Shown here piece after piece: positions 4,687-43,146 of a DNA stretch of 64,000 bases. The notes below the pieces were generated by a model, which ran no database searches, was not told the DNA's origin, and saw nothing but the letters and a program-made list of their open reading frames with translations. The translations under genes and the position numbers were made by a program. Numbering within the stretch: the first letter of the stretch is position 1; every line of letters begins with the position of its first letter. The DNA comes from an uncultured Myxococcales bacterium (GTDB lineage: Bacteria; Desulfobacterota; Binatia; UBA1149; CAITLU01), in NCBI GenBank assembly GCA_964476185.1, contig CAYYZO010000006.1:16529-80528 (forward strand). The letters are read 5' to 3'.

Positions 4687-4742
4687 ACCCGCGCGACGCG
4701 TTTCCCGCGTCGCGACGACCGAGCACCGGAGGAACGATCGCC

Positions 4743-5555
4743 GTGTCCGAACAGCCAGCCCTTCTCGTCGAACGCGACGGCCACGTCGTGACCGTCACGA
4801 TGAACCGCCCCGAAGCGCGCAACGCGCTGAACCCGGAGATGATCTGTCGGCTTGCCGATGCGTGGGACCTGATCGACGACGACGACGACGTTCGCGTCGC
4901 GATCCTCACCGGCTCCCACGGCCATTTCTGCGCCGGCGCCGACCTCGACAAGCTCGTCTCGCGCTCGCTCAAGGGCCTCCCGCCCGAGAACGTGTGGGAG
5001 GAGCGCATCCGCGACAACTACCAGGTGATCTTCCGGGGCCTGCTCCGCACCCGCCGCACGGTGAAGCCGCTGATCGCGGCCATCGAGGGCTCCTGCATCG
5101 CCGGCGGCGTCGAGATCCTGCAGGCCACCGACATCCGGGTGGCCGCCGAGGGCGCGAAGCTGGGCGTTTCCGAAGTCCGCTGGGGCCTGTTCCCGCAAGG
5201 CGGGAGCACGACGCGACTGCCACGCCAGATCCCGTTCACCCGCGCGATGGAAGTGCTGCTGACCGGAGACCACTACAGCGCCGGCGAAGCGCTCGAGATG
5301 GGCCTCATCGGCCGTGTCGTGCCCGACGGGCAGGCGCTCGCGAAGGCGCGCGAGATCGCCGGCCGCATCGCCGAGAACGGCCCGGTCGCCGTGCGGAACA
5401 TCAAGCGCGCGGTGCTCGAGGTCGAGGGCATGACCGAGGACGATGCCCGGGAGGTCGAGATGCGACTCGGCATGGAGGTGTTCTCGACCGAGGACGCGAA
5501 GGAAGGGCCGCGCGCCTTCAAGGAAAAGCGCAAGCCCGAGTTCAAGGGCCGCTGA
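4743..5555 (+). CDS. enoyl-CoA hydratase/isomerase (crotonase family)
   Basis: Translation VTVTMNRPEARNALNPEM...HFCAGADLDKL...AAIEGSCIAGGVEILQATDIRVAAEGAKLG carries the crotonase oxyanion-hole motifs. GTG start at 4743. Confidence 0.85.
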   Translation: MSEQPALLVERDGHVVTVTMNRPEARNALNPEMICRLADAWDLIDDDDDVRVAILTGSHGHFCAGADLDKLVSRSLKGLPPENVWEERIRDNYQVIFRGLLRTRRTVKPLIAAIEGSCIAGGVEILQATDIRVAAEGAKLGVSEVRWGLFPQGGSTTRLPRQIPFTRAMEVLLTGDHYSAGEALEMGLIGRVVPDGQALAKAREIAGRIAENGPVAVRNIKRAVLEVEGMTEDDAREVEMRLGMEVFSTEDAKEGPRAFKEKRKPEFKGR

Positions 5556-5616
5556 CGGACCGCCGCGCACGACCGGTCCGCGGCGTCGGTTCCGGGGGCA
5601 GGGGGGCAGTCGCGGC

Positions 5617-6765
5617 CTATCCGGGCGAGAGCGCCCGTCGCACGAGCGGCACGAGCCGGCGGACGCCGAGCGGCGAGGGGTGCGAGTGGTCGACGTAGAG
5701 CGCCAGCGCCGCGAACTGCGTGCCGCGCCGAGCCTGTTCCCGCGTGGTGATGTCGAGGAAATCGATCACGCCGAAATCCGCCTCGCGCGCGAGCCGCAGG
5801 AGCTCGTGCTTCTCGTCGCGGTACGTCGGGAACCCGTGGTGCTCGTGGCCGCGCACGCGCGTGAGCTCGGGAACCGTGTTGTAGATGTACGGGGCGTACA
5901 GCACGGTGACGCGCCGGGCGGATTCCCTGGTGCGAAAGTCGCGCAGCCAGGCGACGATCTCGGCGGGACGGCCGTACGGCTCGTCCGCCGACCAGTCGTT
6001 CTCGCAAAGCACGTACAGGATCTGGTCGATCCGTCCCCGGTACTGCCCTGCCGCCCGCTCGAGCGCGCAGACCACGTCGGCCGCCTTCGCGCCGGCGATG
6101 CCGAGGTTCACGTATCGGCGCCCGGGATCCCGCTGCTGCAGTCGTGAGGCGAGCGTCTCGCTGTCGTCGAGCATGGCGCCGTTGGCCACGCTGTCGCCGG
6201 CGACGAGCACGACGCGTTCGGCGTCGACCACGGGGAGCGTGAGGCGTTCCCCGCGGGCGTTCGTGGTGTGACGCACCCGGCGAAAGGCGTAACGCTGCAG
6301 GAACGCCTCGAGCTCCGCGGGAAGCTCGCGCGAACCGTCGTAGAAGAACGTCATCGGGTCGAACGGGTTGAACAGGTTCGTGCGCAGGAACCCGACGATC
6401 TTCGACAGGTTCGGCTTCTGCACGCGGCATGGGCCGTCGTCCGCGTTGATCGACATCTCCTCGGTCCGCAGTCGCGAGAACGGCGAGTTGCCGAGCCCCA
6501 TCCCGGATTCCTGCATGAGCGGCAGAAGGCGACGGATCCCGGCGACGCTCTCGAGCACGCGCGTCGATGCGTCGGACGGATCGGCGGGGCCGGGACCGTC
6601 GGTCGTCCTCACGCGCTCGCGCAGCGCCGACGCGAGGCTGGCCTCGGCACGAGATCCTCTCGCGAGCGCGGCGACTCCTTCGGCGAAGATCCACGCGATC
6701 GCCGCCGAGGCGACCGTGGCGGTGCACGCGAACAGCGCCCGCCGCAGGCCGGGCGGGGGCTTCAT
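5617..6765 (-). CDS. SGNH/GDSL-family hydrolase (esterase/acyl-esterase) with N-terminal transmembrane anchor
   Basis: Start MKPPPGLRRALFACTATVASAAIAWIF contains a TM helix. GDS(x) block VVLVAGDSVANGAML and a C-terminal DxxH-like region are present. ATG at 6765 overlaps the upstream GT4 stop as ATGA. The upstream 600 aa of the 981-aa track ORF are frame noise. Confidence 0.65.
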   Translation of the reverse strand: MKPPPGLRRALFACTATVASAAIAWIFAEGVAALARGSRAEASLASALRERVRTTDGPGPADPSDASTRVLESVAGIRRLLPLMQESGMGLGNSPFSRLRTEEMSINADDGPCRVQKPNLSKIVGFLRTNLFNPFDPMTFFYDGSRELPAELEAFLQRYAFRRVRHTTNARGERLTLPVVDAERVVLVAGDSVANGAMLDDSETLASRLQQRDPGRRYVNLGIAGAKAADVVCALERAAGQYRGRIDQILYVLCENDWSADEPYGRPAEIVAWLRDFRTRESARRVTVLYAPYIYNTVPELTRVRGHEHHGFPTYRDEKHELLRLAREADFGVIDFLDITTREQARRGTQFAALALYVDHSHPSPLGVRRLVPLVRRALSPG

Positions 6766-7994
6766 CGCGCGCCTCCCGTGGCGACGGCGGTCGGCGCGTC
6801 GGTCGCCTCGAGGGACGCGGTCGCGCCGGCGGCGCGGCGCAGCACTTCGAGGTAGCGGTCGACCGCGCGCGAGACGCCGAACTCGTCGGCGCGGGCGGCC
6901 AGCAGGCCCCTGGGAGGAGGTCGTTCGAGCACCGAGAGGATCGCGACGGCCAGCGCGTCGGCATCGCCGACCGGCACGAGAGGGCCGTACCGGCCGCCGT
7001 CGAGGATTTCCCGCGGGCCGCTCGGGCAGTCGGTGCTGGCGACGGGGCAACCGCAGGCCATCGCCTCGATCAGAACGCCGGGCAGGCCTTCCCACGCCGA
7101 CGACAACGCCAGGACCGCCGCCGCCGCGAAGTACGGCGCGGGCTCGCGGACGTATCCGGCGAAGTCCACGTCGGTTTCGATGCCGAGCTCGCGGGCGAGG
7201 GCCTTCAGCGCCGCGAGGCGCTTCGGTCGGTTCGCGCGGCCGAGGATCACCAGGCGCGTTTCGCGGACGGCGCGCACCTTCGCGAACGCTCGCAACAGGG
7301 TCGGGTAGTCTTTCTGGCGAACGAGTCGTCCGGCCGCGAGCACGACGGGCGGTTCTCCCGGCGCGAACCACGGATGCGCGAGCGGCTCGCACGCGCGTCG
7401 TCGCAGCGCGTCGGCAGGGATCGGGTTGTAGATCGTGACGATTCGCTCGCGGGGATAGCCGGTCGCGCGCGCGAGGTCGTCGCCGACTCCGGCGGAGACC
7501 GCGATGACGGCCCCGGCGTCGAAGTACAGCCGGCGAGCGAGCAGCCGGGCGAGGGGACGCTTCGCGGGCGGCGAGCCGTCGCCGCGATCGCGGGTGAGGT
7601 GGTTGCTGATGCGCAGCACGACGGGCACGTCGCTGCCTGCGAGCCGGCGCGCGAGCAGGGCCGGCGCGTGCACGTGGCTGGCCGCGGAGAGCAGCACGCG
7701 CGGCGGAGTCCGGCGCAATCGCCGCGCCAGCAGCGGCATGGCGAGCAGCAGCTGCACGCGACGCGGCAGGCGCGCGAGCGGATGGGCGCCGCGCCAGCGG
7801 GTGAGCTCGACGACGCGCACGCGCGCGTCGATCTCCCGTTCGAGCGGGCCTTCGGCGGTGACCATCCAGAGCTCGATCGCCAGCCCACGGCGCGCGAGCT
7901 CGTTGACCAGCGTGACGGTGCGCCGCTGCGCGCCGCCGCCGCTCGGGCTGTGAAGGAAAACGGCAGCATCGGCGGGCGATCCGCGCGAAGTCAT
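6762..7994 (-). CDS. GT4-family retaining glycosyltransferase (GT-B fold)
   Basis: N-terminal HSPSGGGAQRRTVTLVNELARRG, donor-binding GRLVRQKDYPTLLRAF and the EX7E region SSAWEGLPGVLIEAMACGCPVASTD. ATG 7994 overlaps the upstream GT4 stop (ATGA); stop 6762-6764 overlaps the SGNH ATG. Confidence 0.8.
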   Translation of the reverse strand: MTSRGSPADAAVFLHSPSGGGAQRRTVTLVNELARRGLAIELWMVTAEGPLEREIDARVRVVELTRWRGAHPLARLPRRVQLLLAMPLLARRLRRTPPRVLLSAASHVHAPALLARRLAGSDVPVVLRISNHLTRDRGDGSPPAKRPLARLLARRLYFDAGAVIAVSAGVGDDLARATGYPRERIVTIYNPIPADALRRRACEPLAHPWFAPGEPPVVLAAGRLVRQKDYPTLLRAFAKVRAVRETRLVILGRANRPKRLAALKALARELGIETDVDFAGYVREPAPYFAAAAVLALSSAWEGLPGVLIEAMACGCPVASTDCPSGPREILDGGRYGPLVPVGDADALAVAILSVLERPPPRGLLAARADEFGVSRAVDRYLEVLRRAAGATASLEATDAPTAVATGGAR

Positions 7995-12198: not shown

Positions 12199-13815
12199 TC
12201 AGGGGCATCCGCCGACTCCCGGCGTGTACGTCGTCTGGGGATCGCTCGCGCAGTACAGCGTGACGGCGGATTGCAGCTGGAGCCGGCCCGGGCCGGGCAG
12301 GCCGACGACGGTGTTGACCGAGGCCGAAGAGGTCGGCGGCGAGCAGAACGTTCCGCCGACGTACGGCACGTAGGGGTTGGGCATGCCCTGGGTCACGATC
12401 GGATCCAGGAAACAATCGCGTCGCTCCACCAGCGTGCAGGTCCCCGCGTCGATCCCCAGCGTCGCCGGCTCGCAGTCGACGTTGCTCCCGCATCCGATCA
12501 GTCCGGTGCCTTCGGCGCGCAGTACCATGTCGCAGTACAGGTCGTCGGGACCGACGGCGCACAAGCCTTCCTCGCCGCCGACGTCGTCGCACTGGCCGGT
12601 GTCGCACGCGTTCGGCAGTGTCAGCGAGCCGCTGCCGTTGCTCGCACAGGCGCCGGCGGACAGGGCCTCGCACTCGGCGTGGCTGTTGCATGCGATCGTC
12701 GGATCGCCCGTGCAGAGCCGGCACGGGCACAACAGGTCACTGCCGGGGCCGTCGGTCGCGCACGGAACGTTCGCATGGAGTTCGTCCCGGCCGGTCGCCA
12801 GGCGCGTCTCGATGCGCAGGCCGGGGCCCGTGATGTTCGCACCGGCGAGCGGGTAGCAATCGAGGCTGTAGAGCGCGCCGGTCGGCGGCACGAACGTCGC
12901 GTTGTACGCCTGCGCGTCGCAGGTCTGTCCGGCGTTGGCGCCGCCGACGCAGGTCCCTCCGCGCTGCCCGTCGGCCGGCGTCGGGTCGTCAACGCAGAGT
13001 GGGCAGGGCTGCAGCAGGGAGATGCCGAGGTAGATCTTCTCTGCGAGATGAAGGTTGATGAACCCCGAACCCTCGTCGACGTTCACGTCGCCGTCGGGCT
13101 GGGAGGCCAGCGTGTTCAGCACGCAGACGGGCGTGTTGCCGGAAGACAGCGGCAGGGGCGGCCCGAAGTGGCAGATGCACTCGGCGCCGCCGCAGAACTG
13201 CTCGTCGGGCCCGGCGACCGTGAAGCACGGCTGGCGGTTGTCGTTCTCGCACCGGCAGTTCCCGAGCGAGGGGTCGTGGCCGGTCACCTCGCATTGTCCG
13301 CACGGAGCCGGCCCTTCGCAGCCGAGGAACACGCGCGCCGGAACCGGGTCGTCGGTGTCGTAGTCGTGCGAGAGGCCGGTCCATCCGACGTCGGCCTCGG
13401 TCCCGGTGCGGCAGCGTCCGAGGGTCGTGTCGCACACGGAAAAGGGCGCGCAGTCGGAGTTCGAGGCGCAGGCGCCACGGATCTTGGAGAACAATGCGAA
13501 CTGGGCGACGGACGGGCACCCGCTGTCGTCCGGCTCGCAGGCAGGGCAGTCGAGGGTGACGTCGAGGCCGACGGCGAGGCGGAGAACGGTCAGTGCGTCG
13601 GTGCTGGTCGTCTCGCCGGAATCGTTCACGTCGCAGACGCAGAGGTCGCACGACTCCAGATCGACGGACGTACGCAGCACGAAGAGTGCATCGGAGGCGT
13701 CGGCCGGATCGTGGAGCGGCATGCCGCAGTCGCCCACGTCGGCGCCGGCGCGGCCAGCGACGGCGAACAGCAGGAGCGAGGCGAGCAAGAGCTTCATCCG
13801 CTTCTCGAGACCCAT
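12199..13815 (-). CDS. secreted cysteine-rich protein with N-terminal two-repeat dockerin-like (EF-hand-like Ca-binding) segment; function unknown
   Basis: Signal peptide MGLEKRMKLLLASLLLFAVAGRAGA with a GGAGG RBS 7 nt upstream of ATG 13815. Dockerin-like repeats HDPADASDALFVLRTSVDLES and CDVNDSGETTSTDALTVLRLAVGLD span about 13561-13713. The remainder has about 50 Cys in a CxxC/CxC-rich module ending ...TLYCASDPQTTYTPGVGGCP. It is a paralog of 26883-29291. Confidence 0.7.
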   Translation of the reverse strand: MGLEKRMKLLLASLLLFAVAGRAGADVGDCGMPLHDPADASDALFVLRTSVDLESCDLCVCDVNDSGETTSTDALTVLRLAVGLDVTLDCPACEPDDSGCPSVAQFALFSKIRGACASNSDCAPFSVCDTTLGRCRTGTEADVGWTGLSHDYDTDDPVPARVFLGCEGPAPCGQCEVTGHDPSLGNCRCENDNRQPCFTVAGPDEQFCGGAECICHFGPPLPLSSGNTPVCVLNTLASQPDGDVNVDEGSGFINLHLAEKIYLGISLLQPCPLCVDDPTPADGQRGGTCVGGANAGQTCDAQAYNATFVPPTGALYSLDCYPLAGANITGPGLRIETRLATGRDELHANVPCATDGPGSDLLCPCRLCTGDPTIACNSHAECEALSAGACASNGSGSLTLPNACDTGQCDDVGGEEGLCAVGPDDLYCDMVLRAEGTGLIGCGSNVDCEPATLGIDAGTCTLVERRDCFLDPIVTQGMPNPYVPYVGGTFCSPPTSSASVNTVVGLPGPGRLQLQSAVTLYCASDPQTTYTPGVGGCP

Positions 13816-14083
13816 TCCGGCACCTCCGTGTGTGGTTGTTTGCCAGCAACAGTGTGACGTCCTCGATCGGGTATTGGCAACGGAGAACACGGAGAAAGCC
13901 GGTACGCAGTGTCCGGCAGTAAGTGGATAGTCTCACTTGGCGTCAGGTCGTACGGGGTCGACGGTGGCGGAAGGACGCTGGCTCGCCCGATCGAGCGTCG
14001 AGCGCGCAGGACGCGTGAGGGCGTGGCCTCTCGCGCTTGCGCGGCGTGGATCTACCCGCCGCGCTTCGATGCGCAGCGTCCGG

Positions 14084-15670
14084 TCAGAACCCGTGCGCCG
14101 CGAGCGCTGTCGAGATGCGATCGCGCACGGAAGGGTCGGGGAAGGGGAACGACGCGAGAAAGTCGACGAGACCCAACGTGGGAGCGCGCCGGCGCACTTC
14201 GGCGGCCCATGCGTCGGCGCGTCGGGAGTCGCCTCGCATTGAGTGCGCCGCGACCGCGATCATGGCGATCATCACGTGGGCACCAGGCGAGCGGGCGGCG
14301 AGCTCCGCCCAGGTGGCGCCGTCGTCATGCTGCGAGCGAACGATGTGGGAGAGCGCACGGGTCGCGGTCATCGCGTAGTGCAGGGGATCGAGCGGGCTCA
14401 GCGCCATGGCGGCGTCGGCGTCCCGCTGCCCCTCGCGGCCCCGGCCGGACAGCGTGTGCGTCCAGGCACGCGCGTAGACGCCCTGCGCGTAGTTCGGGCA
14501 CAGCGCGACCGAACGTTCGATCCAGATCAGCGCCGAGTCGAGGTCGCGCTCGAGCCAATGGGCCCGACCCATCGAGAAGTTCGCGAACGGGTCGAGGGAG
14601 TCGAGCTCCACCGCGCGCTCCGCCGCGCTGCGTGCGAGCGCGGCCGAAGCGGCGTCGTGCGGCACGAAGTGCAGGAACGCATTCTGGAAATGCACGAAGG
14701 AGCGACCCGCGTGGGCGCGGGCGAAGGAGGGGTCGAGGTCGATCGCCCGGTCGAAGCATTCTCCGGCAAACGCGTTGTCGCTGCGGTTGAAGCGGAACAT
14801 GTGGTGGCGGCCGAGGTGGTAAGCAGTCCACGCATCGAGATGCCCGGGGCTCGCTTTGGCTACGGTGGCCTCGTGCTCCGGGATACGCAGTTCCAGCGCG
14901 GAGACGACGCTGGATGCGATCCGTGCCGGCGTCTCCTGCACGTCGTCGAGCGAGATGCCGTACCGCTCGGCCCAGAGTACGTTGGCGTCGTGCGTTTGCG
15001 TGAGTCGTACCGAGACGACGAGTCGACGACCGCTCGTCTCGACGCTGCCGGTCACCACGTAGCGGACGCCGAGCAGGCGCCCGACATCCGCCGGATCGAC
15101 GGCGTCCGGCCGCAGCCGAAACGACGACCCGCGTGCGACGACGAACAGCCAGCGCAGTCGCGCGAGCTCGGTGATCAACTCGTCGGCCAGCGCCTCGGCC
15201 ACGGCGCCGTCCGGGGTCGGGTCGCCGACCCGCCCGAGCGCGAGCACCGCGATCGAAGGCCGTCCCGACTGCGCCGGCGCCTCGGCGTCTCGCGGTTCGT
15301 CGCCGCCTCGCGCGACCCGGGGCACCGCGCGTACGTCGGCCACGAAGCGGAACCCGCGCCCGTGCACGGTCCGGATCAGCCGCTGCGAGCGGCCGTCGTC
15401 GCCGATCGCGCGGCGGGCCGACTTGACGCGGCTGGAGATCGCGGCGTCCGAAACGACGCGGCCGTCCCAGACCTTCTCGACGATCTCGTCGCGCGAGACG
15501 AGTCGGTCGGCGTTCTCGACGAGCAGGAGAAGCAGCGCGAAGACCTGCGGCTCGACAGGGACGGGGCTGTCTTCCCGGCGCAGCTCGGCCCGCGCCGGGT
15601 CCAGCTCGAAGGTTTCGAAGCGGTGGATCACGGGCGGGACGATACCCGGAACCGCGCGGCCCGTCTCCAC
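14084..15670 (-). CDS. CadC/OmpR-type winged-helix transcriptional regulator with TolB-like and TPR C-terminal domains
   Basis: FELDPARAELRREDSPVPVEPQVFALLLLLVENADRLVSRDEIVEKVWDGRVVSDAAISSRVKSARRAIGD is a trans_reg_C DNA-binding domain. Downstream is a TolB-N-like region (IAVLALGRVGDPT...VRYVVTGSVE) and TPR-like helices. GTG start at 15670. Confidence 0.75.
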   Translation of the reverse strand: METGRAVPGIVPPVIHRFETFELDPARAELRREDSPVPVEPQVFALLLLLVENADRLVSRDEIVEKVWDGRVVSDAAISSRVKSARRAIGDDGRSQRLIRTVHGRGFRFVADVRAVPRVARGGDEPRDAEAPAQSGRPSIAVLALGRVGDPTPDGAVAEALADELITELARLRWLFVVARGSSFRLRPDAVDPADVGRLLGVRYVVTGSVETSGRRLVVSVRLTQTHDANVLWAERYGISLDDVQETPARIASSVVSALELRIPEHEATVAKASPGHLDAWTAYHLGRHHMFRFNRSDNAFAGECFDRAIDLDPSFARAHAGRSFVHFQNAFLHFVPHDAASAALARSAAERAVELDSLDPFANFSMGRAHWLERDLDSALIWIERSVALCPNYAQGVYARAWTHTLSGRGREGQRDADAAMALSPLDPLHYAMTATRALSHIVRSQHDDGATWAELAARSPGAHVMIAMIAVAAHSMRGDSRRADAWAAEVRRRAPTLGLVDFLASFPFPDPSVRDRISTALAAHGF

Positions 15671-15772: not shown

Positions 15773-15997
15773 ATGCCGATGGTGACGATCGACGTGATCA
15801 AGGACGTGTTCAGCCCGGAGCAGAAGCAGGCCCTGATGGAACGGGTGACCGAAGCGGTGGTCAGCGTGGAGGGGGAGAACCTGCGCCCCGTGACCTGGGT
15901 GCGCGTGCAGGAGTTCGAACAGGGGGACTGGGCGATCGGGGGCCGCCGCCTGCTCGCGGCCGACGTCCACGCCATGAAGGCCGGCAAGGCAGCCTGA
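15773..15997 (+). CDS. tautomerase family protein (4-oxalocrotonate tautomerase-like, Pro1)
   Basis: [34 protein letters not shown] is the canonical N-terminal Pro beta-alpha-beta fold. The product is 74 aa. Confidence 0.7.
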
Positions 15998-16001
15998 ACG
16001 T

Positions 16002-16039
16002 CGCCAGGCCGGCCGCCCGCTGGAGCGGCCGGCCTGGCG
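16002..16039. terminator. perfect 15-bp GC-rich inverted repeat (bidirectional terminator-like hairpin) between convergent genes
   Basis: CGCCAGGCCGGCCGC - 8 nt loop - GCGGCCGGCCTGGCG lies between the tautomerase stop (15997) and the ferredoxin stop (16042). No U-tract is present. Confidence 0.45.
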
Positions 16040-16041
16040 AA

Positions 16042-16236
16042 TCAGTCTTCCGCGATCGAGATGGCCTGCCGCGGGCAGAGCCGCACGGCCTCCTTCAGCT
16101 TGTCGCGCATCGACTCGGGAGGGTTCTCGACGAGGACGTTCAGGCTGTCCTGGTCGTCCACCTGGAACACTTCGGGCAGGATGCGCATGCAGACCGCGTT
16201 GGCTTCGCACAGATCGTAGTCGACGACGACTTTCAT
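16042..16236 (-). CDS. 3Fe-4S/4Fe-4S single-cluster ferredoxin (P450 redox partner type)
   Basis: MKVVVDYDLCEANAVCMRILPEVFQVDDQD...RLCPRQAISI has the CxxxxxC...CP spacing of FdxD/Fdx-type ferredoxins. It lies immediately downstream of the P450. Confidence 0.8.
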   Translation of the reverse strand: MKVVVDYDLCEANAVCMRILPEVFQVDDQDSLNVLVENPPESMRDKLKEAVRLCPRQAISIAED

Positions 16237-16270
16237 GATTCCCGGACCTTAGCGGTTGCGGAAGTCGCAG

Positions 16271-17584
16271 TTAAGCGGAGGCCGCACCGGCCTGTTCCTG
16301 GTGGAACGGGCAGCCGCCGGAGGTCGTCGCCGATGCCTCGGAGCGCTTCGCCGGAGTGTACCGTACCGGCATCTCCTTGACGCCGTGGATGAAGTTGGAG
16401 CGGAGGAAGCGGATCGGGCCGGCCGCCTCGATGTCCGGGACCCGCGTCAGCAGTTCGGTGAAGATCGAGCGCAACTGGCAGCGCGCGAAGCTCGCGCCGA
16501 GGCAGTAGTGCTCGCCGATGCCGAGGCCAAGGTGCTCGGGGATGCGGCGCGTGACGTCGAAGCGGTCGGGGTCCTCGAACACATCCTCGTCGCGGTTGGC
16601 CGACGGATACCACATCACGACCTTGTCGCCTTTCTTCAGCGTCTTGCCGCGCAGCTCGAAGTCCTCGGTCAGGGTGCGCCGGAAGTGCATCACGGCCGGG
16701 TTGTAGCGAAGGAACTCCTCGACGGCGTTCGGGATCAGCGACGGGTTCTCGACCAGCTTCCTGCGCTCCTCGGGGTGCTCCATCAGGAGGCGCATGCCGT
16801 GCGCGGTCAGCGTGCGGGTGGTCTCGTTTCCCGCGATCATCAGCATCAGGAAGAAGTAATTGTACTGGAACGCGTCCATCGACTCGCCGTCGACCTTGCC
16901 GTGGTAGAGCGCGCTCGCGAGGTTGTCCTTCGGGCACTCGGCGACGAGGTCGCGCAGTTTCTGCCCGTACATGCAGACTTCGGCCGCCGCGATCCGTCCC
17001 TCGTCGAAGGAACCGATCAGTTCCGGATCGTCGAAGCCCACGAGCCGGTTGCTGAGGTCGAACAGCCGCGCCTGGTCTTCTTCCGGCACGCCGACGATCT
17101 CCATGATCGTCTTCATCGGCAGCTGGGCGGCCACGTCCATGACGAAGTCGCAGCTGCCCCGCTCGACGATGTCGTCGACGATCTCGCGCGCGAGGTCGCG
17201 GATGTGCGGCTCCAGGCGCTCGATCATCCGGGGAGTGAAGTTGTGGGCGACCAGGCGCCGGTACTTCACGTGCGTCGGCGGGTCCATGTTGAGCATCATG
17301 GACCGCGTTCCGTCGAGGTCCTCGCCGTGCAGGTCGAAGATGTTCGTGCCGCCCTCCCACGACGAGAACAGCATCGGGTTGCGCGACATCATCTTGATGT
17401 CCTCGTACTTCGTGATCGACCAGAAGCCGCGCCCGTTGCGCTCGACCTCGTGGCGCGTGTCGTTCCAGTGCACCGGATCCTCCCGGCGCAACCGGCGGAA
17501 GTAGTCGTGCGGGAATCCGTCGGCGAACGAGTCGGGGTTCGCCAGGTCGAGGTCGGGAAGGCTGGAAGCATCGGTTCGGGTCAT
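16271..17584 (-). CDS. cytochrome P450 (CYP125/CYP142/CYP124-like)
   Basis: Heme-binding loop LGLGIGEHYCLGASFAR, the EXXR block EEFLRYNPAV and the I-helix MLMIAGNETT. N-terminal MTRTDASSLPDLDLANPDSFADGFPHDYF. Confidence 0.9.
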   Translation of the reverse strand: MTRTDASSLPDLDLANPDSFADGFPHDYFRRLRREDPVHWNDTRHEVERNGRGFWSITKYEDIKMMSRNPMLFSSWEGGTNIFDLHGEDLDGTRSMMLNMDPPTHVKYRRLVAHNFTPRMIERLEPHIRDLAREIVDDIVERGSCDFVMDVAAQLPMKTIMEIVGVPEEDQARLFDLSNRLVGFDDPELIGSFDEGRIAAAEVCMYGQKLRDLVAECPKDNLASALYHGKVDGESMDAFQYNYFFLMLMIAGNETTRTLTAHGMRLLMEHPEERRKLVENPSLIPNAVEEFLRYNPAVMHFRRTLTEDFELRGKTLKKGDKVVMWYPSANRDEDVFEDPDRFDVTRRIPEHLGLGIGEHYCLGASFARCQLRSIFTELLTRVPDIEAAGPIRFLRSNFIHGVKEMPVRYTPAKRSEASATTSGGCPFHQEQAGAASA

Positions 17585-17710
17585 CGCTGCAACTCCCTGT
17601 GTGGTCTTGGGCGCCGGGCCGTCCTAGACTCCGGGTTCGCTCGAGCGCGCGGTCCGGCACGGAGCCGGGCCGCTGCGCGAGGATCGAGCGTGAACGAACG
17701 TTTGTTGGGT

Positions 17711-17718
17711 AACAGGTT
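17711..17718. promoter_or_regulatory. AACAGGTT core (KstR-like AACnnGTT half-palindrome) in divergent P450/tetR intergenic region
   Basis: ...TTGGGTAACAGGTTTGCC... at 17705-17722. The same AACAGGTT core recurs upstream of the second TetR gene at 41302-41311. It is short and unsupported by other evidence. Confidence 0.2.
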
Positions 17719-17835
17719 TGCCGAGGTGCGGCAAGACCTGAATTGTCCCCGGTGCGGGCGGCTCGCCGCTTCGAGAGCGGCCGAATCCCCGGTTGATCTC
17801 GCGGCTCCGCCCCGGCGGGCCGCACAGGAGACGCC

Positions 17836-18474
17836 ATGACGACCGGAACCATCGATCCCGCGGCCGGGGACGTCCGGACGACCCGGGAACGCATCCTCGA
17901 TGCCGCCGAGCAGGTGTTCGCCGAAAAGGGCCTCGGGGCGGCGCCGGTCCGGGACATCGCGGCGCGGGTCGGGCTCAATCCGGCGAGCCTCTACAACCAC
18001 TTCGCCGGCAAGGAAGAACTCTACGAGGCCGTGCTCGAACGGGGGCTGACCCCCGTGCTCGAGATGCTCTCGGACCTCATGAGCGGCCAGCGCACCCGGG
18101 ACCGCGAGGAGAAGGCGATCGACCGCGTGGTGCTCCACTTCGCGGCCAGCCCGAACCTGGCCAAGCTGATCCACTACGAGACCCTGTCCGGCGGGGAGCG
18201 GCTCGCGAAGATCGCCGGGCGCTGGTTCGAGCCGGTCTACCAGCGCGGCTTCGAGGTGCTGAACGCGAGCCGGGCCGCCGAGCTCTGGAGCGAGCAGGAG
18301 ATCCCGCTGCTGCTGCTGGCCTTCCAGAACCTGATCGTCGGCTATTTCGCGATGGTCCCGCTCGTGCAGCAGGTGTTCGGGTTCGATCCTGTCTCCCCCG
18401 AAGGAATCGAGCGCCAGACCGCCTTCCTGCACAAAGTCGCCTACCTGCTGGTCCCGCCCCGCGACGGAGAGTGA
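17836..18474 (+). CDS. TetR/AcrR-family transcriptional regulator (divergent from P450)
   Basis: RERILDAAEQVFAEKGLGAAPVRDIAARVGLNPASLYNHFAGKEELYEAV is the TetR HTH. The product is 212 aa. Confidence 0.85.
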   Translation: MTTGTIDPAAGDVRTTRERILDAAEQVFAEKGLGAAPVRDIAARVGLNPASLYNHFAGKEELYEAVLERGLTPVLEMLSDLMSGQRTRDREEKAIDRVVLHFAASPNLAKLIHYETLSGGERLAKIAGRWFEPVYQRGFEVLNASRAAELWSEQEIPLLLLAFQNLIVGYFAMVPLVQQVFGFDPVSPEGIERQTAFLHKVAYLLVPPRDGE

Positions 18475-20474
18475 GCGAGGCTCGCGAACGCGGCCGCGGC
18501 AAACGGACCCGCCGCCGGGGACGCCTGCTGGTCGTCCTCGCGTTCGTCGTCGCGCTGGCCGCGCTGGTCCGGGCGCTGCTCGGCCTCTATTCCGCGGACC
18601 TCTTCCTCGTCGTCGCCCGCGAGGCCGCGCGCGGCGGCGGACTCCAGATTCTTCTCGAGGAAGAGCCGACGGTGAACCTCGCCGGTTTCGAGGCTCGAAG
18701 CGTCACGGTGCGGGACGCCTCGGGCGAGGAGCTGCTCCGGGCAGGTGGCATCTCCGGGCAGGTCCAATGGTTCCTGCACGACCCCTGGATCGGCCTGTCG
18801 CTCACGCTTCGTGACACCCTCGTTCCGTGGCGCGAGAGTTCCGGCGCCAGCCGGGCGGAGCGACCGCAGGGGCCGCTCGTTCCGTCGGTCCCGGCGCAAC
18901 TGGCGGGCGTCGTGCTGGAGCGCGCGCGTGTCGAACTCGGCGAGGGACGCGCGGTGCAGCTCGACGCCGAGTTTCGGTTCGACGGCGGAATCGCGGCCGA
19001 AGTCCGGCGGCTCGACTACGAGGAGCTGACCGGCGAGATCGTCGCCGAGAAGCTGGCGGGCTCGCTTCGCCTCGATCGCGCAGCGGCGCCGGCCGAGTCG
19101 TGGAACGTGGATGTCGCGGTGCGCTCCGGTAGCGCGCTGGTCGGGCCGGTGCTGCTCGATCTCGAGACCCACGCATTCACCGTCTCGGCGAACATCGCCC
19201 GCGATGCGGGCGCATCGCTGCTGGTTTCCGGCGCGACCGCGACGTTCGGACGCCTCCTGCGCGGCTCGGGCCAGCTGCGGTGGTCCGCGGACGGGGGCGT
19301 CGAGGGCGCGGACGTCCAACTCGCCACGAGCACGCTTGGCGACGCGTTCGTCACGCTCGTGCGCGAGCCGTTCTCCGGCGTGGCGCCGCCGCTGGCGGGG
19401 ACGTCGGTGGAGGGCCGCGCCGAGTTCGCGCTGCGTTTCGACCGACCGTCGGCCGGGGCTGCGGTCGCCACGCTCTCTGTTTCCCTGCCGACGCTGCGCG
19501 CCCCCGCCGTCGAGGCCGAGCGGCTCGAGGCGGTCCTGCCGTGGAGCGGCGTCGCGGTTCCCGGCCGCGCTGCGCGCGAGGGCCGTCTGCGCGCCGAAAG
19601 GTTGTCGCTGATGGGACTCGGCTGGACCGGCGTCGCCGCGCCGCTCGTTGCGATACCCGGGCGGCTTCGCACCACCGCCGCCCAGGATTGGAAGAGCGAC
19701 GCCGGGACGATTCACCTGGCTGAGCTTGCGGTCGTCGAGGACTCGTCCGGCTTCCGGTTGGAAGCCGTCGTGGACCGGCTCGAACTCGACGTCGCGCGGC
19801 TCGGTGCTGCCCTCGGCGTCCAAGGCCTGGACGGGCGTTTGACCTCCGGTCGCAGCCGCCTTCGTCTGGACGCCGAGACGCTGCGCAGTGACGCCACGCT
19901 GACGGTCTCCGCATTCGGCGGCACGATCGAGCTGTCGAACCTGTTCGCCGACCATCCGTTCCGGCGCGTTCCCGAGTTCGGTTTGGACGCGAGGCTCGCG
20001 GAGGTCGATCTCGGGTCGCTGACGTCGTGGCTCGGCGCCGGCCGCGTGACCGGCGTGCTCGAAGGAACCGTTCGCGGTCTGGTCATCGCGGACGGCCAGC
20101 CGCAGGCGCTCGACGCGGACCTGCACACGGTCGAGCGACGCGGGGTCTCGCAGCACGTGGACGTTCGCGCGATCGTCCAGCTCGGGGTCCTCGGCGGCGG
20201 CGACAGCGGGTCGCTGACGGGGACGCTCCTCCGGTTCGTGGACCGTTACCGCTATGCAAAGCTCGGCGTGCGCTGCCGGTTGCGGAACGACGTGTTCGAA
20301 CTGCGCGGGGTCGAGACGCAGGGCGGCAAGGACTACATCGTCAAGGGCAGCCTGCTGCCGCCGTCGGTCAGCGTGGTCAGTCATTCGCAAGTCGTGTCGT
20401 TCTCGGAGATGCTTCGACGCATCGAGAGGATCACGGCGATGGACGAAGGAGGAACCCCCGATGCGGAGCCATGA
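18471..20474 (+). CDS. YdbH-like AsmA-family protein (large periplasm-spanning, N-terminal TM anchor)
   Basis: GTG 18471 overlaps the tetR stop (GTGA). TM helix LLVVLAFVVALAALVRALLGL; long beta-rich repeats; C-terminal ...GVRCRLRNDVFELRGVETQGGKDYIVKGSLLPPSVSVV. The domain assignment rests on the gene order YdbH then YnbE/YdbL. Confidence 0.65.
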   Translation: MSEARERGRGKRTRRRGRLLVVLAFVVALAALVRALLGLYSADLFLVVAREAARGGGLQILLEEEPTVNLAGFEARSVTVRDASGEELLRAGGISGQVQWFLHDPWIGLSLTLRDTLVPWRESSGASRAERPQGPLVPSVPAQLAGVVLERARVELGEGRAVQLDAEFRFDGGIAAEVRRLDYEELTGEIVAEKLAGSLRLDRAAAPAESWNVDVAVRSGSALVGPVLLDLETHAFTVSANIARDAGASLLVSGATATFGRLLRGSGQLRWSADGGVEGADVQLATSTLGDAFVTLVREPFSGVAPPLAGTSVEGRAEFALRFDRPSAGAAVATLSVSLPTLRAPAVEAERLEAVLPWSGVAVPGRAAREGRLRAERLSLMGLGWTGVAAPLVAIPGRLRTTAAQDWKSDAGTIHLAELAVVEDSSGFRLEAVVDRLELDVARLGAALGVQGLDGRLTSGRSRLRLDAETLRSDATLTVSAFGGTIELSNLFADHPFRRVPEFGLDARLAEVDLGSLTSWLGAGRVTGVLEGTVRGLVIADGQPQALDADLHTVERRGVSQHVDVRAIVQLGVLGGGDSGSLTGTLLRFVDRYRYAKLGVRCRLRNDVFELRGVETQGGKDYIVKGSLLPPSVSVVSHSQVVSFSEMLRRIERITAMDEGGTPDAEP

Positions 20475-21087
20475 CGACGTTTCTTCCGGATGGACCCGAT
20501 GGCGCTCGCGCCTGCTGCTGCCCGTGCTCGCCGCCGCCGCGTTTTCGGCCTGCGTGACGGTCAACATCTACTTCCCGGCTCCGGAGGTCCGGCAGGCCGC
20601 CGAACAGATCGTCGAGGAAACCTGGGGATCGGCCGAGGCGCCGGCCGCGCCTGGGCCGCAGTCGCGCGTGCTGCGCAGCCTGTTCTTGGCGGCCTCGGCG
20701 TTGCTGTCGCCGGCCGAGGCCCACGCAGCCGACGTGGACGTGAACGTCTCGACAGCCTCGATCCGCGCGCTGAAGGAGAGCATGCGCACGCGGGCAGCCG
20801 AACTGAAGCCGCACCTGGCGAGCGGCCTCGTCGGCATCGGCCGCGACGGCATGCTCGTGGAGCGCGACGGCTCCGGCGCGGACCTGGCGACCAAGGCCAA
20901 GGTGAGGCGGCTCGTCGATGCCGAGAACCGCGATCGCGAGGCCCTCTACCGCGAGATCGCGACCGCGAACAACTACGGCAGCGAGCGCGTCGACGACATC
21001 CGGCGCATTTTCGCGCAGACCTGGAAGGACAAGGCCGAGCCCGGCTGGTGGATCCAGGACGCGAGCGGCGCCTGGAAACGCAAGTAG
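20461..21087 (+). CDS. YnbE-like lipoprotein fused to YdbL (DUF1318)-like domain
   Basis: Signal peptide plus lipobox ...LLLPVLAAAAFSAC followed by VTVNIYFPAPEV (YnbE-like). The C-terminus ASGLVGIGRDGMLVER...KAKVRRLVDAENRDREALYREIATANNYGSERVDDIRRIFAQTWKDKAEPGWWIQDASGAWKRK matches the YdbL/DUF1318 consensus. The start overlaps the ydbH-like 3' end by 14 nt. Confidence 0.7.
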   Translation: MRSHDDVSSGWTRWRSRLLLPVLAAAAFSACVTVNIYFPAPEVRQAAEQIVEETWGSAEAPAAPGPQSRVLRSLFLAASALLSPAEAHAADVDVNVSTASIRALKESMRTRAAELKPHLASGLVGIGRDGMLVERDGSGADLATKAKVRRLVDAENRDREALYREIATANNYGSERVDDIRRIFAQTWKDKAEPGWWIQDASGAWKRK

Positions 21088-21097
21088 GGCCGCCGGA

Positions 21098-22642
21098 TCA
21101 CGGCGGGGTCTGGTTTCGCCAGGACCGCTGCAGGCCGAACAGCACCGTGAGCGCCGCGAGCAGCCCGGCGATGCTGGGCACGAGTCCGGGTGCCGTCGCC
21201 GCCAGAGTCATGCGCGAAGGCGGCGACGGGATCTCGAAGAGGCCGACGGCCTTGCGGCGCTGGATCGGGATGCCGATGTCGGCGCCGTCCGGGGCGATCG
21301 CGCCGGAGATACCGCCGTTGGCCGCGCGAACCATCGGGCGCCGCAGTTCGACCGTGCGCAAGGCGCTCATCGCGTAGTGCTGTTCGGGGCCCGCGCCGCC
21401 GGAGAACCAGGCGTCGTTCGAGAGGTTGACGAGCAGGTCCGCTCCGCCGAGCACGGCTTTTCGGGCGTACTCGGGATAGACCGCCTCGAAGCAGATGAGC
21501 GGGGAGACCTTCCAGCCCTTCACCTCGAACCACGCTGCCCGGTCGCCGGCGCGATAGTGCGCCGCGTCCACGATCTCCGAAGACCCGGCCGGTGAGCTCT
21601 CCACGTACGGAAGCAGGCGCTGCTTGTCGTACGTGCGAGGCTCGGACGCATCGGGCGGGAAGAACCATGCGCTGTTGTAGACGGCAGCACGGCCGTCGCC
21701 GGTCGATTCGCTCCGCGGCGCTCCGAGCAGGATCGCGGCGCGCAGCGACGAAGCCAGTCCGGACAGGCGCGAGCGGGCCGAGGAGTCGGAATCGAGCAGG
21801 AACGGAACCGAGCTCTCCGGCCACACGACGAGGTCGACCGTGCCCGGCTCGAGGTTCCGCGTCGCGTTCATGTAGGCGTTCCAGTGCTCGATGCGACGGG
21901 CGGGATCCCAGACCTCGCGGCTGGGGATCTCGGCCTGGACCACGGCGACGCGAAGCGGCTTGTGCGGCGAGATGCGCTGCTCGCGGGTCTGCTCGGCGAG
22001 GCCGAGTCCCGTCAGCACCAGCAGCGACAGGAGCGTCAGCTTCATGCAGTTCGACGCGCTTCGCGAGTCCGCGTCGGGCTGCACGCCGACCCCGATGGCG
22101 CTGCCGCAGACGGCGGCTGCCCATCCGAGGAAGGCCTCGCCGCCGAACGAGGCCGCTTCGCGCAGGACCGGCAGGCCGGCGAAGGCCTGGCCGAGCGTTG
22201 CCCACGTGTTGCCGAACGGATCCATTCCGCGGATCGCCTCGACCGTCGTCCAGACCGACGCGATCCCGAGGACGCGCAGGACCGGCGGCACGAACGCGAG
22301 AAGGCGGATGCCGATGAAGGCCGGCACATAGAACGTCGCGACGTACGCCGCGTTGACCACCAGCGTGAACCCGAGCGACCACAGGATGCCGCGATCGAAG
22401 TAGTCGGCCGCCGCGCTGAACATCCAAGGCCCGACGATCGCCAGCGAAGCGAGCCAGCCGAACGCGAAGCCCCAGAGTCCCGCGCGCGGGATCGAGCAGC
22501 GCATCGTCGGGTTCGCGAACACGAGCGTGATCGGCGTCAGGGCCAGGAACACGAGCGGCGCGACGTGGAACGGATGGTACAGCAGCGCGAACACGATCGT
22601 CGCTACGGCGACGCTGGCGGCCTGGACGATCAGCGGCGACAT
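21098..22642 (-). CDS. lnt: apolipoprotein N-acyltransferase
   Basis: A multi-TM N-terminus is followed by a CN-hydrolase domain (RVAVVQAEIPSREVWD...VDLVVWPESSVPF...LICFEAVYPEY). ATG 22642 (MSPLIVQAAS). It is convergent with the YnbE::YdbL gene with a 10-nt gap. Confidence 0.85.
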   Translation of the reverse strand: MSPLIVQAASVAVATIVFALLYHPFHVAPLVFLALTPITLVFANPTMRCSIPRAGLWGFAFGWLASLAIVGPWMFSAAADYFDRGILWSLGFTLVVNAAYVATFYVPAFIGIRLLAFVPPVLRVLGIASVWTTVEAIRGMDPFGNTWATLGQAFAGLPVLREAASFGGEAFLGWAAAVCGSAIGVGVQPDADSRSASNCMKLTLLSLLVLTGLGLAEQTREQRISPHKPLRVAVVQAEIPSREVWDPARRIEHWNAYMNATRNLEPGTVDLVVWPESSVPFLLDSDSSARSRLSGLASSLRAAILLGAPRSESTGDGRAAVYNSAWFFPPDASEPRTYDKQRLLPYVESSPAGSSEIVDAAHYRAGDRAAWFEVKGWKVSPLICFEAVYPEYARKAVLGGADLLVNLSNDAWFSGGAGPEQHYAMSALRTVELRRPMVRAANGGISGAIAPDGADIGIPIQRRKAVGLFEIPSPPSRMTLAATAPGLVPSIAGLLAALTVLFGLQRSWRNQTPP

Positions 22643-22737
22643 CGGGTCGGGCTCCCGGGGGCCGGGCAGGGGCCGCGCTGCGCCGCTTCCGCGCGTCCGT
22701 GTTGCGAACACGGGGAGAGTGCGGCATCGGGGTGGGC

Positions 22738-23325
22738 ATGGGCGAAGAACGGGGCCAGCGGTTCGCGGGCGTGCATGTCGCGCCCAGTGCTTCCATCTAC
22801 GGCGAGGTCGACATCGGGGCGGGCTCGTCGGTCTGGCCGAACGCCGTCGTGCGGGCCGAGTGCCAGCACGTCCGCGTCGGCCGGGTGACGAACCTGCAGG
22901 ACTTCGCGATGGTCCACGTCGGGTACGACCACCCGACCTTGATCGGCGACTTCTGTTCGATCACGCACCACGCGACCATCCACGGCGCGACGGTGGGCGA
23001 CGCCTGCCTCGTCGGCATCGGCGCCGTGCTGATGGACGGCGTCGTGCTGGGCGCCGGATCGATCGTGGCCGGCGGGGCCGTCCTGACCGAAGGGTCGGTG
23101 TTCGAGCCGGGCTCCATCGTGGCGGGAGTGCCGGCCCGGACGATCAAGCGGCGAGACGCGACGCGCGAGAATCGGTTGAACGCCTGGCTCTACCACCGCA
23201 ACGCGCTCGCGTACGCGCGCGGCGAGCATCGCGCCTGGCACGGCGAGGAGTTCGATCGCTGGAAGGCCGAACTGCTGCGCGAACTCGAGACCGACGCGGA
23301 TCTCGAGCGCCTGCGGCGAACGTGA
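22738..23325 (+). CDS. gamma-class carbonic anhydrase / hexapeptide-repeat (LbH) family protein (PaaY/YrdA-like)
   Basis: MGEERGQRFAGVHVAPSASIYGEVDIGAGSSVWPNAVVRAE...GRVTNLQDFAMVHVG...IGDFCSITHHATIHGATVGDACLVGIGAVLMDGVVLG are hexapeptide repeats. Confidence 0.8.
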   Translation: MGEERGQRFAGVHVAPSASIYGEVDIGAGSSVWPNAVVRAECQHVRVGRVTNLQDFAMVHVGYDHPTLIGDFCSITHHATIHGATVGDACLVGIGAVLMDGVVLGAGSIVAGGAVLTEGSVFEPGSIVAGVPARTIKRRDATRENRLNAWLYHRNALAYARGEHRAWHGEEFDRWKAELLRELETDADLERLRRT

Positions 23326-26882: not shown

Positions 26883-29291
26883 CTACGGGCAGCCGCCCAC
26901 GCCTGGCGTGTACGCCACCATCGGGTCCCCGGCGCATCGCAGGCTCAGCGTGGTCTGCTGGACCTGGCGGACCAGCCCCGGGAGGCCGGCCACCGCGTTG
27001 ATGCCCAGGTTCGAGGTAGGCGGAACGCAATGGCTGCCGGCGAGTAGCGGCGCGGTGGCGCTGGACGCTCCCGTAGCGACGACAGGGTCGAGGAAGCACG
27101 CGCGTCGCTCGACGATGGTGCAGTCGCCGGCATCGATGCCGACCGTGGCGGGGGTGCAGTCGTCGTTCGTCGAGCACGCGAGAATCCCGCGGCCGTCAGC
27201 TCTTGTGACGCCGTCGCAGAAACGGTCGTCGGGCCCGGTCGTGCACTGGCCCTCGCCGCCGCCGAGATCCGTACAGAGAAGGTCCTCGCAGTCGTTGGGA
27301 AGCGGATCGACGCCGAAGCCTCTGCTGCTGCAGGTGGCGGGCTCGCAGGAACCGAGATTCGCGTCCTGGCAGTCCGCGTCCACGCTGCACGGCAGGGACA
27401 GCAAGCCCGTGCAGCGATGCAAGGCCGGGTGGCAGGTGCCGACGTCGACGGTAGCGCAGTCGGCGTTCTCGTCGCATTGATGGAGGGGGGCCGCGGCGCA
27501 GCCGCCTCGCAGCGCGGCGCAGTCGGTGTCACCGGCGCAAGCGACCGAGGGGTCGGAACTGCAGAGCAGGCACGGACAGTCCAGGCCGGCTCCGGTTCCG
27601 GGACAGGACAGGCCGGAGGCGTGCGAACTCGCCCCCGTCTTCTGCGACAGGTTCAGCTTCAGCCCGGATCCGCTGACGTTGAGGCCGGCGGACGGCAGGC
27701 AGTCGAGGCTGTACCCGCTTCCGCCTCCACCTCCGGCAAAGGCGGGCAGCGAGGCATTCGCGCCCAGGACATCGCAGGACAGGCCGTTGGACTGGCCGCC
27801 CACGCATGTCCCGCCGCGAAGTCCGTCGCCCGCGACCGGGTCGAGGTCGCAGGAGCCGCCGGGGCAGTCGAAGTCGCGCTGGCACGTGGCGGCGGGATTG
27901 TTCGAGCAGGTTCCGCCGCAGGTCGGACAGGGCGCTACCGTGGTCGAGCCGAGGTAGATCCTCGAACTCAGGCTTGCCTCGAGCACGACGTCTCCGGTGT
28001 CCACGTCGATCGAACCGTCGGGGTGCTCCGTGATCCGGTCGACGACGCAAAGGGGAGTGCCTCCGAAGCTGAGCGGCGCCGGCGGGCCGGCGTAACACTG
28101 GCAGGCGCCGCTGCCCGGGCAGTCGTCCGAGTGCGGAGCGAACGGGTCGTCGCAGACGATCCGCGGATCGTCGATGCAGCGGCAGTTGCCGGGGGCCGGG
28201 TCGAGCGCGACGATGTCGCACGAACCGCACGTCGGCCCGGCCGGTCCTTCGCAATACAGCCTCAACCCGAGGCGAACGCCGTCGTTGGAGTCGGATTCGT
28301 GGCCGAGTCCGGTCCAGCCGAGGTCCACGTCGGTGACAGAGGTGCAGTGGCCCAGCGTCTGGTCGCAGGTGCGTGGGGCGGCGCAGTCGCCGTTGTCCGA
28401 GCACGGCACCTTCGTGTCGCGGGAGAGCAGGACCAACTCTGCGCTCCCGGGGCAAGCCGGATCGCCGACCGGGATCGTGGTCGGCGTCGGCAGCTGGAGC
28501 AGCTCTTCGACGAAGACCTTGCCGCCGTCGTCCAGTGTCGACACTACGCAACTCGCCAGCAGGGAAGGATCGGTCGCTCCGCCGCAAGAGTCGAGGTCAC
28601 CGTCGGGCAGGACCTCCGCGCACGGACCGTTCAGGATGCTCTCTTCGACCTTGGCGCTCGCCTCGCTGAGAAGAGCCGGATACTCGGCGTCCGTGCATTC
28701 CGTCACGGTCACGGCGCCGGCCTTCTCGGCGTCGGACTGGCACTTCGAGACGCTCCTGAGGATCGCGTCGAAGAAGCGCGAGCTGCTCTTGGTGACCGAG
28801 CGGTGGCACTTTCTCGAAGGGGTCGCGAGTGGCACGGCGGGATCTCCGTACGCGGCGTCCGCCAGTTCCTCGATGCGCGACCGGTTCAGGCATACGAGGC
28901 ATTCTGCCACCTCGTCGAATCCGGTCAGCGCGGGGACGGTTACGTCGCATGGCGCCGGACACTGCTGGAACAGGACCGTCGATGGGAGGATCCCCTCGCA
29001 TCGGGCCGTGACGTTCTGCACGAACTTCGCTTCGGCCTGCGGGAGCTTGTCCTTCAAGTCGGCGGTCGCGGGGGAGTTGCAGTCGAGCGCGCCGGCGCCG
29101 GTGTTGCGGTAGTGGTGGCAGTCGGCGATGGCGCGCATCGTCGCCTTGGCGAGTTTCGCTCCAGCCTTGGCCACGGTCGACCGGCAACGAAGCTGCTCGG
29201 GACTGAACTGGCCGAAGGCGGTTCCGGGGGATCCGGGCAGGATCGTCGTGAGGACGATCATGGTAGTGAACAACAAGGCGGAACGACGCAT
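26883..29291 (-). CDS. secreted cysteine-rich protein, paralog of 12199-13815 with different N-terminal module; function unknown
   Basis: Signal peptide MRRSALLFTTMIVLTTILPGSPGTAFG, with an AGGAG RBS before ATG 29291. About 70 Cys. The C-terminal 350 aa align with the 12199-13815 protein (DLGWTGLGHESDSNDG... / DVGWTGLSHDYDTDDP...; ...CTIVERRACFLDPVVATG... / ...CTLVERRDCFLDPIVTQG...) and both end in YTPGVGGCP. Confidence 0.75.
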   Translation of the reverse strand: MRRSALLFTTMIVLTTILPGSPGTAFGQFSPEQLRCRSTVAKAGAKLAKATMRAIADCHHYRNTGAGALDCNSPATADLKDKLPQAEAKFVQNVTARCEGILPSTVLFQQCPAPCDVTVPALTGFDEVAECLVCLNRSRIEELADAAYGDPAVPLATPSRKCHRSVTKSSSRFFDAILRSVSKCQSDAEKAGAVTVTECTDAEYPALLSEASAKVEESILNGPCAEVLPDGDLDSCGGATDPSLLASCVVSTLDDGGKVFVEELLQLPTPTTIPVGDPACPGSAELVLLSRDTKVPCSDNGDCAAPRTCDQTLGHCTSVTDVDLGWTGLGHESDSNDGVRLGLRLYCEGPAGPTCGSCDIVALDPAPGNCRCIDDPRIVCDDPFAPHSDDCPGSGACQCYAGPPAPLSFGGTPLCVVDRITEHPDGSIDVDTGDVVLEASLSSRIYLGSTTVAPCPTCGGTCSNNPAATCQRDFDCPGGSCDLDPVAGDGLRGGTCVGGQSNGLSCDVLGANASLPAFAGGGGGSGYSLDCLPSAGLNVSGSGLKLNLSQKTGASSHASGLSCPGTGAGLDCPCLLCSSDPSVACAGDTDCAALRGGCAAAPLHQCDENADCATVDVGTCHPALHRCTGLLSLPCSVDADCQDANLGSCEPATCSSRGFGVDPLPNDCEDLLCTDLGGGEGQCTTGPDDRFCDGVTRADGRGILACSTNDDCTPATVGIDAGDCTIVERRACFLDPVVATGASSATAPLLAGSHCVPPTSNLGINAVAGLPGLVRQVQQTTLSLRCAGDPMVAYTPGVGGCP

Positions 29292-42983: not shown

Positions 42984-43146
42984 CCGGCGGCTCGGCGGCC
43001 GACTTTCCCCGCGGGTCCGTTGAACGCCGCCCCCCGTGTTGGTAGCCTCGGAGCTTGGCGCCCGATGCCGGGGACGACGCTGGCGTCGTTCGAAGCCGGG
43101 TCGCCGTGGACGCGCGAACCGCGCGCGTGCGGTGGAGGTGAGGCGG

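Follow-up and report, generated by a model that had tools for sequence, protein, structure and literature searches.

The gene at positions 12199–13815 of the window, by which we mean the whole 64 kb stretch of DNA that was analysed, encodes an exported protein made of two modules. At its N-terminus is a diverged dockerin that recurs at either end of otherwise unrelated exported proteins in Binatia-type MAGs, while the C-terminal module is a cysteine-rich domain without a known relative in Pfam, NCBIfam or the PDB. The features of the gene and its product are as follows.

12199..13815, minus strand: target coding sequence, 538 aa plus the stop codon (12199–12201); a complete open reading frame, equal to database protein P0001
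13823..13827, minus strand: Shine-Dalgarno sequence GGAGG, 7 nt 5′ of the ATG (13815–13813)
13741..13815, minus strand: Sec-type signal peptide, residues 1–25, read by eye; cleavage predicted between AGA and D
13537..13728, minus strand: dockerin-like module, residues 30–93, bounded by the conserved cysteines C30, C56, C59, C61, C90 and C93
13654..13725, minus strand: repeat 1, residues 31–54; loop GMPLHDPADASD degenerate, helix ALFVLRTSV kept (AF2 helix 40–50)
13561..13632, minus strand: repeat 2, residues 62–85; canonical F-hand loop DVNDSGETTSTD, then helix ALTVLRLAVG (AF2 helix 71–81)
12202..13527, minus strand: cysteine-rich beta domain, residues 97–538, with 38 cysteines, ending ...YTPGVGGCP

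The third-position GC content of the open reading frame is 0.87, which is typical of coding sequence, in a window of 70% GC, and about 45 full-length orthologues of the 538-aa protein share 51–83% identity with it. Alignment of the upstream regions showed GGAGGTG to be the sole 5′ element common to the target gene and the orthologue loci. A more distant GTG start at 13890 would add 25 residues, which are present in no orthologue. By eye, the N-terminus (MGLEKRMKLLLASLLLFAVAGRAGA followed by D) is Sec-like with an A-x-A cleavage site, and the AF2 model has a helix at residues 3–19 followed by disordered residues 20–27 with pLDDT <50, both in agreement with the signal peptide that had been claimed for this protein. 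Binatia are taken to be diderm, so that a Sec signal alone takes the protein only as far as the periplasm. Promoter and terminator scans found nothing. The gene appears to stand on its own.

Dockerin homology and fold of residues 30–93

The original prediction, made from sequence alone, described the module as a complete two-repeat dockerin, and the two peptides quoted for it, DPADASDALFVLRTSVD and DVNDSGETTSTDALTVLRLAVGLD, are both present in the translation. Repeat 2 matches the calcium-loop consensus; in repeat 1 only D12 and the following helix are kept and the ligand positions 1, 3 and 5 are not, so that 'complete' says too much. Across 82 family modules, loop 2 has D at position 1 in 80, N or D at position 3 in 79, S, D or N at position 5 in 80, G at position 6 in 65, I or V at position 8 in 67 and D at position 12 in 81; in loop 1 of these modules, only D12 and the next helix are kept, and P, S/T and G prevail at positions 1, 3 and 5, respectively. 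Both repeats retain the helix start [ST]-[ST/A]-D-A-L-x-x-L-[RQ]. Because repeat 2 keeps the calcium-loop consensus, a single Ca2+ site, located in that repeat, would be expected in the module, and because the first F-hand is without calcium ligands, classical dual-mode cohesin binding is doubtful.

Scanning with Dockerin_1 (PF00404), a check proposed along with the prediction, gave a divided answer. The full-length protein had no match in Pfam or NCBIfam, Dockerin_1 included, and the isolated module fragment scored 15.7 bits (E 0.018, second repeat only), so that the target protein does not reach the gathering threshold of 22.9 bits; relatives, by contrast, pass it. The module of the homologous protein P0096 scored 33.1 bits over profile positions 5–56, covering both repeats, and when 46 homologous modules were scanned singly, 25 matched Dockerin_1 at E <= 0.1, with a best value of 2.9e-10. 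Homology of the target module, at 37–74% identity, extends to modules of about 70 other proteins. A search of all PDB sequences with the module profile gave 11 matches at E <= 10, for the most part (nine of the 11) cellulosomal dockerins, with 1ohz_B as the best match (E 1.2e-3).

The predicted structure leads to the same assignment. In the AF2 model of the whole protein (78-sequence alignment, mean pLDDT 92.2, pTM 0.81), the module contains helices at residues 40–50, 58–61 and 71–81, superposes on dockerin structures and shows the three-helix dockerin fold; a Foldseek search against the PDB returned the dockerin 4uyq_B with a probability of 0.96. We conclude that residues 30–93 are a diverged dockerin, and we consider this assignment sound by transitive homology and by fold, drawn as it is from the homologous modules, the PDB profile search and the AF2 model and not from the protein's own, sub-threshold Pfam score. 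A match to DUF6233 (19 bits against a cut-off of 27.6 bits) was dismissed, being below threshold and overlapping a dockerin helix.

Four relatives still have DxNxDG in loop 1 (L014, L016, L021 and P0096), and in the first three of these the canonical DxNxDG is found in both repeats alongside a CxxCxC cysteine cluster. From their sequences, these four look like intermediates that link the Binatia subtype to ordinary dockerins.

The description of the protein as cysteine-rich was borne out, with a lower count than the 'about 50 cysteines' first given: the whole protein has 44, or 8.2% of residues, compared with 0.93% across 19 other window ORFs (binomial p ~4e-27). The N-terminal module contributes six of these and the C-terminal domain the other 38. 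The complete set of module cysteines (C30, C56, C59, C61, C90 and C93) is present in 115 of the 122 modules that are fully covered. In two modules C59 and C93 are absent together, a joint loss that hints at a C59–C93 disulfide. These six residues are probably paired in three disulfides, which would take over the stabilizing role of the lost Ca2+ site. Since C30 lies just before loop 1 and C90 and C93 lie at the C-terminal end, we infer that a covalent disulfide clasp joins the N- and C-termini of the module.

Distribution of the module and family of the cysteine-rich domain

In the target family the module directly follows the signal peptide. In other carriers it forms the final 55–70 residues, often joined to the rest of the protein by a poly-Thr linker; these C-terminal carriers comprise PQQ/GSDH dehydrogenases, CSLREA beta-helix proteins and CarboxypepD_reg, PKD, VCBS and disintegrin-like proteins. 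A putative peptidase is also among the carriers of the module. Across unrelated cargoes the modules are 55–74% identical. One protein (P0097) has the cysteine-rich domain first and the dockerin module last, an order reversed with respect to the target, which indicates that the two parts shuffle independently. The presence of the module at either terminus of unrelated exported proteins fits a docking tag and makes a role as a C-terminal sorting signal unlikely. To judge from these sequences, the module behaves as a shared, mobile docking or targeting tag.

A scan of GTDB genomes with the strict pattern [LT]CVCDVND gave at least 15 module loci, a lower bound given the strictness of the pattern, from MAGs that carry the labels Binatia, 'Deltaproteobacteria' or 'uncultured Myxococcales'. 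At least five module loci belong to a single MAG and at least four (three plus the orthologue P0020) to another; the 64 kb window has one copy. A large protein search with the module profile returned matches that were almost all short fragments. The cargo of one of the putative intermediates (L021, 671–4171) is a 1166-aa protein with the HExxH-like motif HEYVHYLD.

The remaining ~442 aa of the target had been said to resemble no recognizable family, and every search agreed. There was no Pfam or NCBIfam match even at E <= 10, a profile of the whole-family alignment found no match among PDB sequences, and Foldseek returned no significant match to the domain in the PDB. A search of 1.84 billion representative proteins with the domain profile, however, gave 3248 matches at E <= 1e-3, 1309 at E <= 1e-10 and 530 at E <= 1e-30. 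By profile similarity, then, the domain is a member of a large unannotated family, comprising 530 clusters at the last of these thresholds. All 45 of the 45 orthologues have exactly 38 cysteines in residues 97–538, corresponding to 19 predicted disulfides and thus to some 22 predicted in the whole protein, while the cysteine-rich domain of paralogues has 40–68 cysteines, with additional CxxDxDC-type hairpins.

Structure prediction, which had been proposed for this part of the protein, gave a confident beta-rich AF2 model with pLDDT mostly >90. The model weakly resembles eight-stranded beta-barrels such as YceI, avidins, NspA and OmpW, its structural neighbours being binding or membrane barrels, and we propose on this basis that the domain may have a barrel-like core of eight up-and-down strands, to which hairpins stapled by disulfides are added. 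That it is a membrane barrel was rejected on composition: the domain is rich in cysteine, has few aromatics and ends in ...GGCP, in contrast to the Cys-poor amphipathic strands, aromatic girdles and C-terminal aromatic beta-signal that mark the OmpA/OmpW/NspA type.

The domain is usually situated at, or a few residues from, the C-terminus of the protein. Among the 144 family representatives listed, 15 carry the dockerin module, 14 of them N-terminal to the domain and one C-terminal; the partner regions of the other listed representatives are helical cysteine-containing regions or DUF4215 repeats, with no recognizable enzyme. One paralogue lies in the window itself.

26886..29291, minus strand: paralogue P0054, 802 aa, 64 cysteines; cysteine-rich domain 39% identical to that of the target, with an all-alpha N-terminal domain in place of the dockerin

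P0054 consists of a signal peptide, an all-alpha bundle (residues 31–265) and a cysteine-rich beta domain with extra disulfide hairpins. Its N-terminal domain was considered as a cohesin-like partner for the dockerin and rejected, being an all-alpha bundle with generic helical matches only. The helical motif ..C-R-x-x-[IV]-A-K-x-G-x-K-L-x-K-x..C-H of P0054, which Pfam does not match, is also found at the N-terminus in many other proteins of the family.

Genomic context

The genes to which the following text refers are these.

14084..15670, minus strand: regulator with Trans_reg_C (wHTH) and TPR domains (Pfam/NCBIfam); a neighbour of the target, not a conserved partner
15773–15997, plus strand: tautomerase-like ORF, named from its sequence alone
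16042–16236, minus strand: 64-aa ferredoxin
16271–17584, minus strand: P450
39709–40965, minus strand: KshA-like Rieske oxygenase

The winged-helix-TPR regulator reported next to the target gene is indeed there. It is absent, however, from all five of the orthologue neighbourhoods in which the upstream side can be read, and these five neighbourhoods have no gene in common; the adjacency is therefore without functional weight. The closest orthologue is uninformative for the upstream side, because its contig begins 321 bp upstream of the gene. Window positions 15773–22960 are syntenic with a locus from a Binatia MAG (L003, 1–11617), in which the order is Lnt, DUF1318, a ~700-aa protein without a Pfam match, TetR, P450 and ferredoxin, followed directly by the target. 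Compared with that locus, the window has the tautomerase-like ORF and the regulator inserted between ferredoxin and target.

A Pfam scan of 23 window proteins revealed no cohesin, and those of the 23 with matches are lipid-metabolism and housekeeping genes. Around the Rieske oxygenase and the P450/ferredoxin genes are genes for thiolase, enoyl-CoA hydratase and acyl-CoA ligase, a set suggestive of lipid, sterol or alkane oxidation. Elsewhere in the window, the ORF at 43024–44979 (plus strand) encodes a protein with both an AAA_22/AAA_16 ATPase domain and, at its C-terminus, a peptidoglycan-binding SPOR domain, and the ~3.3 kb from 4638 to 7969 contain long overlapping ORFs, all on the minus strand (4638–5570, 5276–6964 and 7250–7969), which have no Pfam match and among which a GC3 filter gave no clear coding frame. 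Scans of the whole 64 kb (1–64000) for tRNA genes and for Rfam families above the gathering score came back empty.

Proposed role, alternatives and related systems

The account that we favour, and that we hold on balance to be probable, is that the protein is exported, oxidized and tethered by its dockerin to a putative receptor, with the beta domain acting as a binding or adhesive head. The protein would be exported via Sec and oxidized to about 22 disulfides. Module 1 (residues 30–93), with its three-helix dockerin fold and one F-hand of calcium-loop consensus, would hold the protein on a putative receptor, cohesin-like or other, in the envelope or matrix, and the same tag would gather different exported cargoes on one common receptor. 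Module 2 (residues 97–538) would be the cargo, for which a binding or adhesive role seems most likely, rather than a catalytic one. A wider version, which we offer tentatively and think unlikely as a whole, is that a lineage-specific dockerin variant of Binatota, with one calcium site and its termini clasped by a disulfide, gathers dehydrogenases, beta-helix proteins, peptidases and the 19-disulfide domain on a putative receptor.

The module might instead be dockerin-derived without docking to any protein, serving as a domain stabilized by Ca2+ and disulfides that aids folding or solubility, or that binds polysaccharide or matrix. The degenerate loop 1 in most family members and the lack of a cohesin among the 23 window proteins scanned are consistent with this, as are the annotation of all matches as hypothetical and a searchable literature in which we found no paper that links dockerins to Binatia or Binatota, or cellulosomes to Binatota. 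In type I dockerins, however, the helix-start region carries cohesin-contact positions, and that start is kept in both repeats here, while the 55–74% identity across unrelated cargoes suggests a common, specific ligand; we judge the non-docking explanation possible without thinking it likely. A related question is whether the cysteine-rich domain is itself an extracellular enzyme that the dockerin merely localizes. H150, R188, S317 and D319 are conserved residues without a structural role, each present in 91–99% of 174 diverse domains, and they could form a catalytic or metal site, which would count against a purely binding role; furthermore, the same tag is found on enzymes such as PQQ dehydrogenases and the putative peptidase. 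Against this, no catalytic family of Pfam, NCBIfam or the PDB resembles the domain, the structures nearest to it are binding or membrane barrels, and its fusion partners in the wider family are only repeats and stalk-like regions, so that we regard an enzymatic cargo as rather improbable.

Two further explanations were weighed. That the target is functionally paired with the wHTH-TPR regulator beside it, and is controlled by it, is suggested by their common strand and the 268 bp between them, but is very unlikely given the five orthologue contexts that lack the regulator, the syntenic locus in which the target directly follows P450-ferredoxin whereas the window has inserted ORFs, and upstream regions that share no motif except the RBS. 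Least credible of all is self-assembly, in which the dockerin of one molecule would bind the cysteine-rich domain of a second copy, or that of a paralogue, to give a surface lattice without cohesin. Here one can point to the 13 kb that separate the target and the dockerin-less paralogue P0054 in the window, to the usually C-terminal position of the cysteine-rich domain, and to two other family members (P0021 and P0048) that both report a longest contig of 24,778 bases, which suggests a second such pair and does not prove it. Direct evidence for self-assembly is absent, however; the cysteine-rich domain is unlike cohesin, and many carriers of the tag lack this domain.

If the wider version of this account were true, an uncultured phylum of diderm bacteria would have a system for surface assembly that is not a cellulosome, and the cargo domain of 440 aa would represent a new fold among extracellular binding proteins. 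A cysteine-braced, single-loop dockerin on many exoproteins of Binatia, which belong to an uncultured phylum of soil and groundwater, would likewise imply an undescribed form of extracellular protein organization, and could give protein engineering a small, redox-stabilized docking tag. The 38-cysteine domain family, with at least 530 clusters, no annotation and no solved relative, is a target for structural and functional work.

Dockerins are best known from cellulosomes, and many non-cellulosomal dockerins have, to our knowledge, no known partner. Compared with type I cellulosomal dockerins (PF00404; C. thermocellum Xyn10B, PDB 1OHZ_B / 2CCL_B), which are without the six conserved cysteines of the Binatia module, the latter has a degenerate first calcium loop, the target's own HMM score is below threshold, the module is N-terminal in the target family, and its host lineage is uncultured, does not look cellulolytic and shows no cohesin in the 23 window proteins scanned. 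Dockerin-like modules outside cellulosomes have been described before (Peer et al., 2009, as cited in PMC3821032); the target is like them in having a cargo unrelated to plant cell-wall degradation and no cellulosome, and differs in that its subtype is cysteine-braced with a single canonical loop. Known dockerins are stabilized by a non-covalent clasp between the termini, formed by stacking or salt bridges; in the R. flavefaciens ScaA dockerin such terminal contacts stabilize the calcium-bound fold (PMC3821032). At the corresponding place the target has C30, C90 and C93, where a disulfide clasp would take over. A cysteine-braced, single-canonical-loop subtype across Binatia exoproteins was not found in the searchable literature. 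What appears to be new here is thus this dockerin subtype, joined to an uncharacterized domain family, rather than a new mechanism.

The cysteine-rich half of the target invites comparison with the DUF4215 / Myxococcus cysteine-rich repeat proteins (PF13948), which are likewise exported and rich in cysteine, and whose repeats precede the cysteine-rich C-terminal domain in paralogous family members. The target protein has no DUF4215 match at E <= 10 and no 47-residue repeat; its cysteine-rich part is one beta domain of ~440 aa, in contrast to strings of 47-aa repeats. We know of no function for DUF4215 repeats. A diatom protein of adhesive trails is one place where they occur (bioRxiv 10.1101/2023.03.06.531300), which by analogy may be a faint hint towards adhesion.
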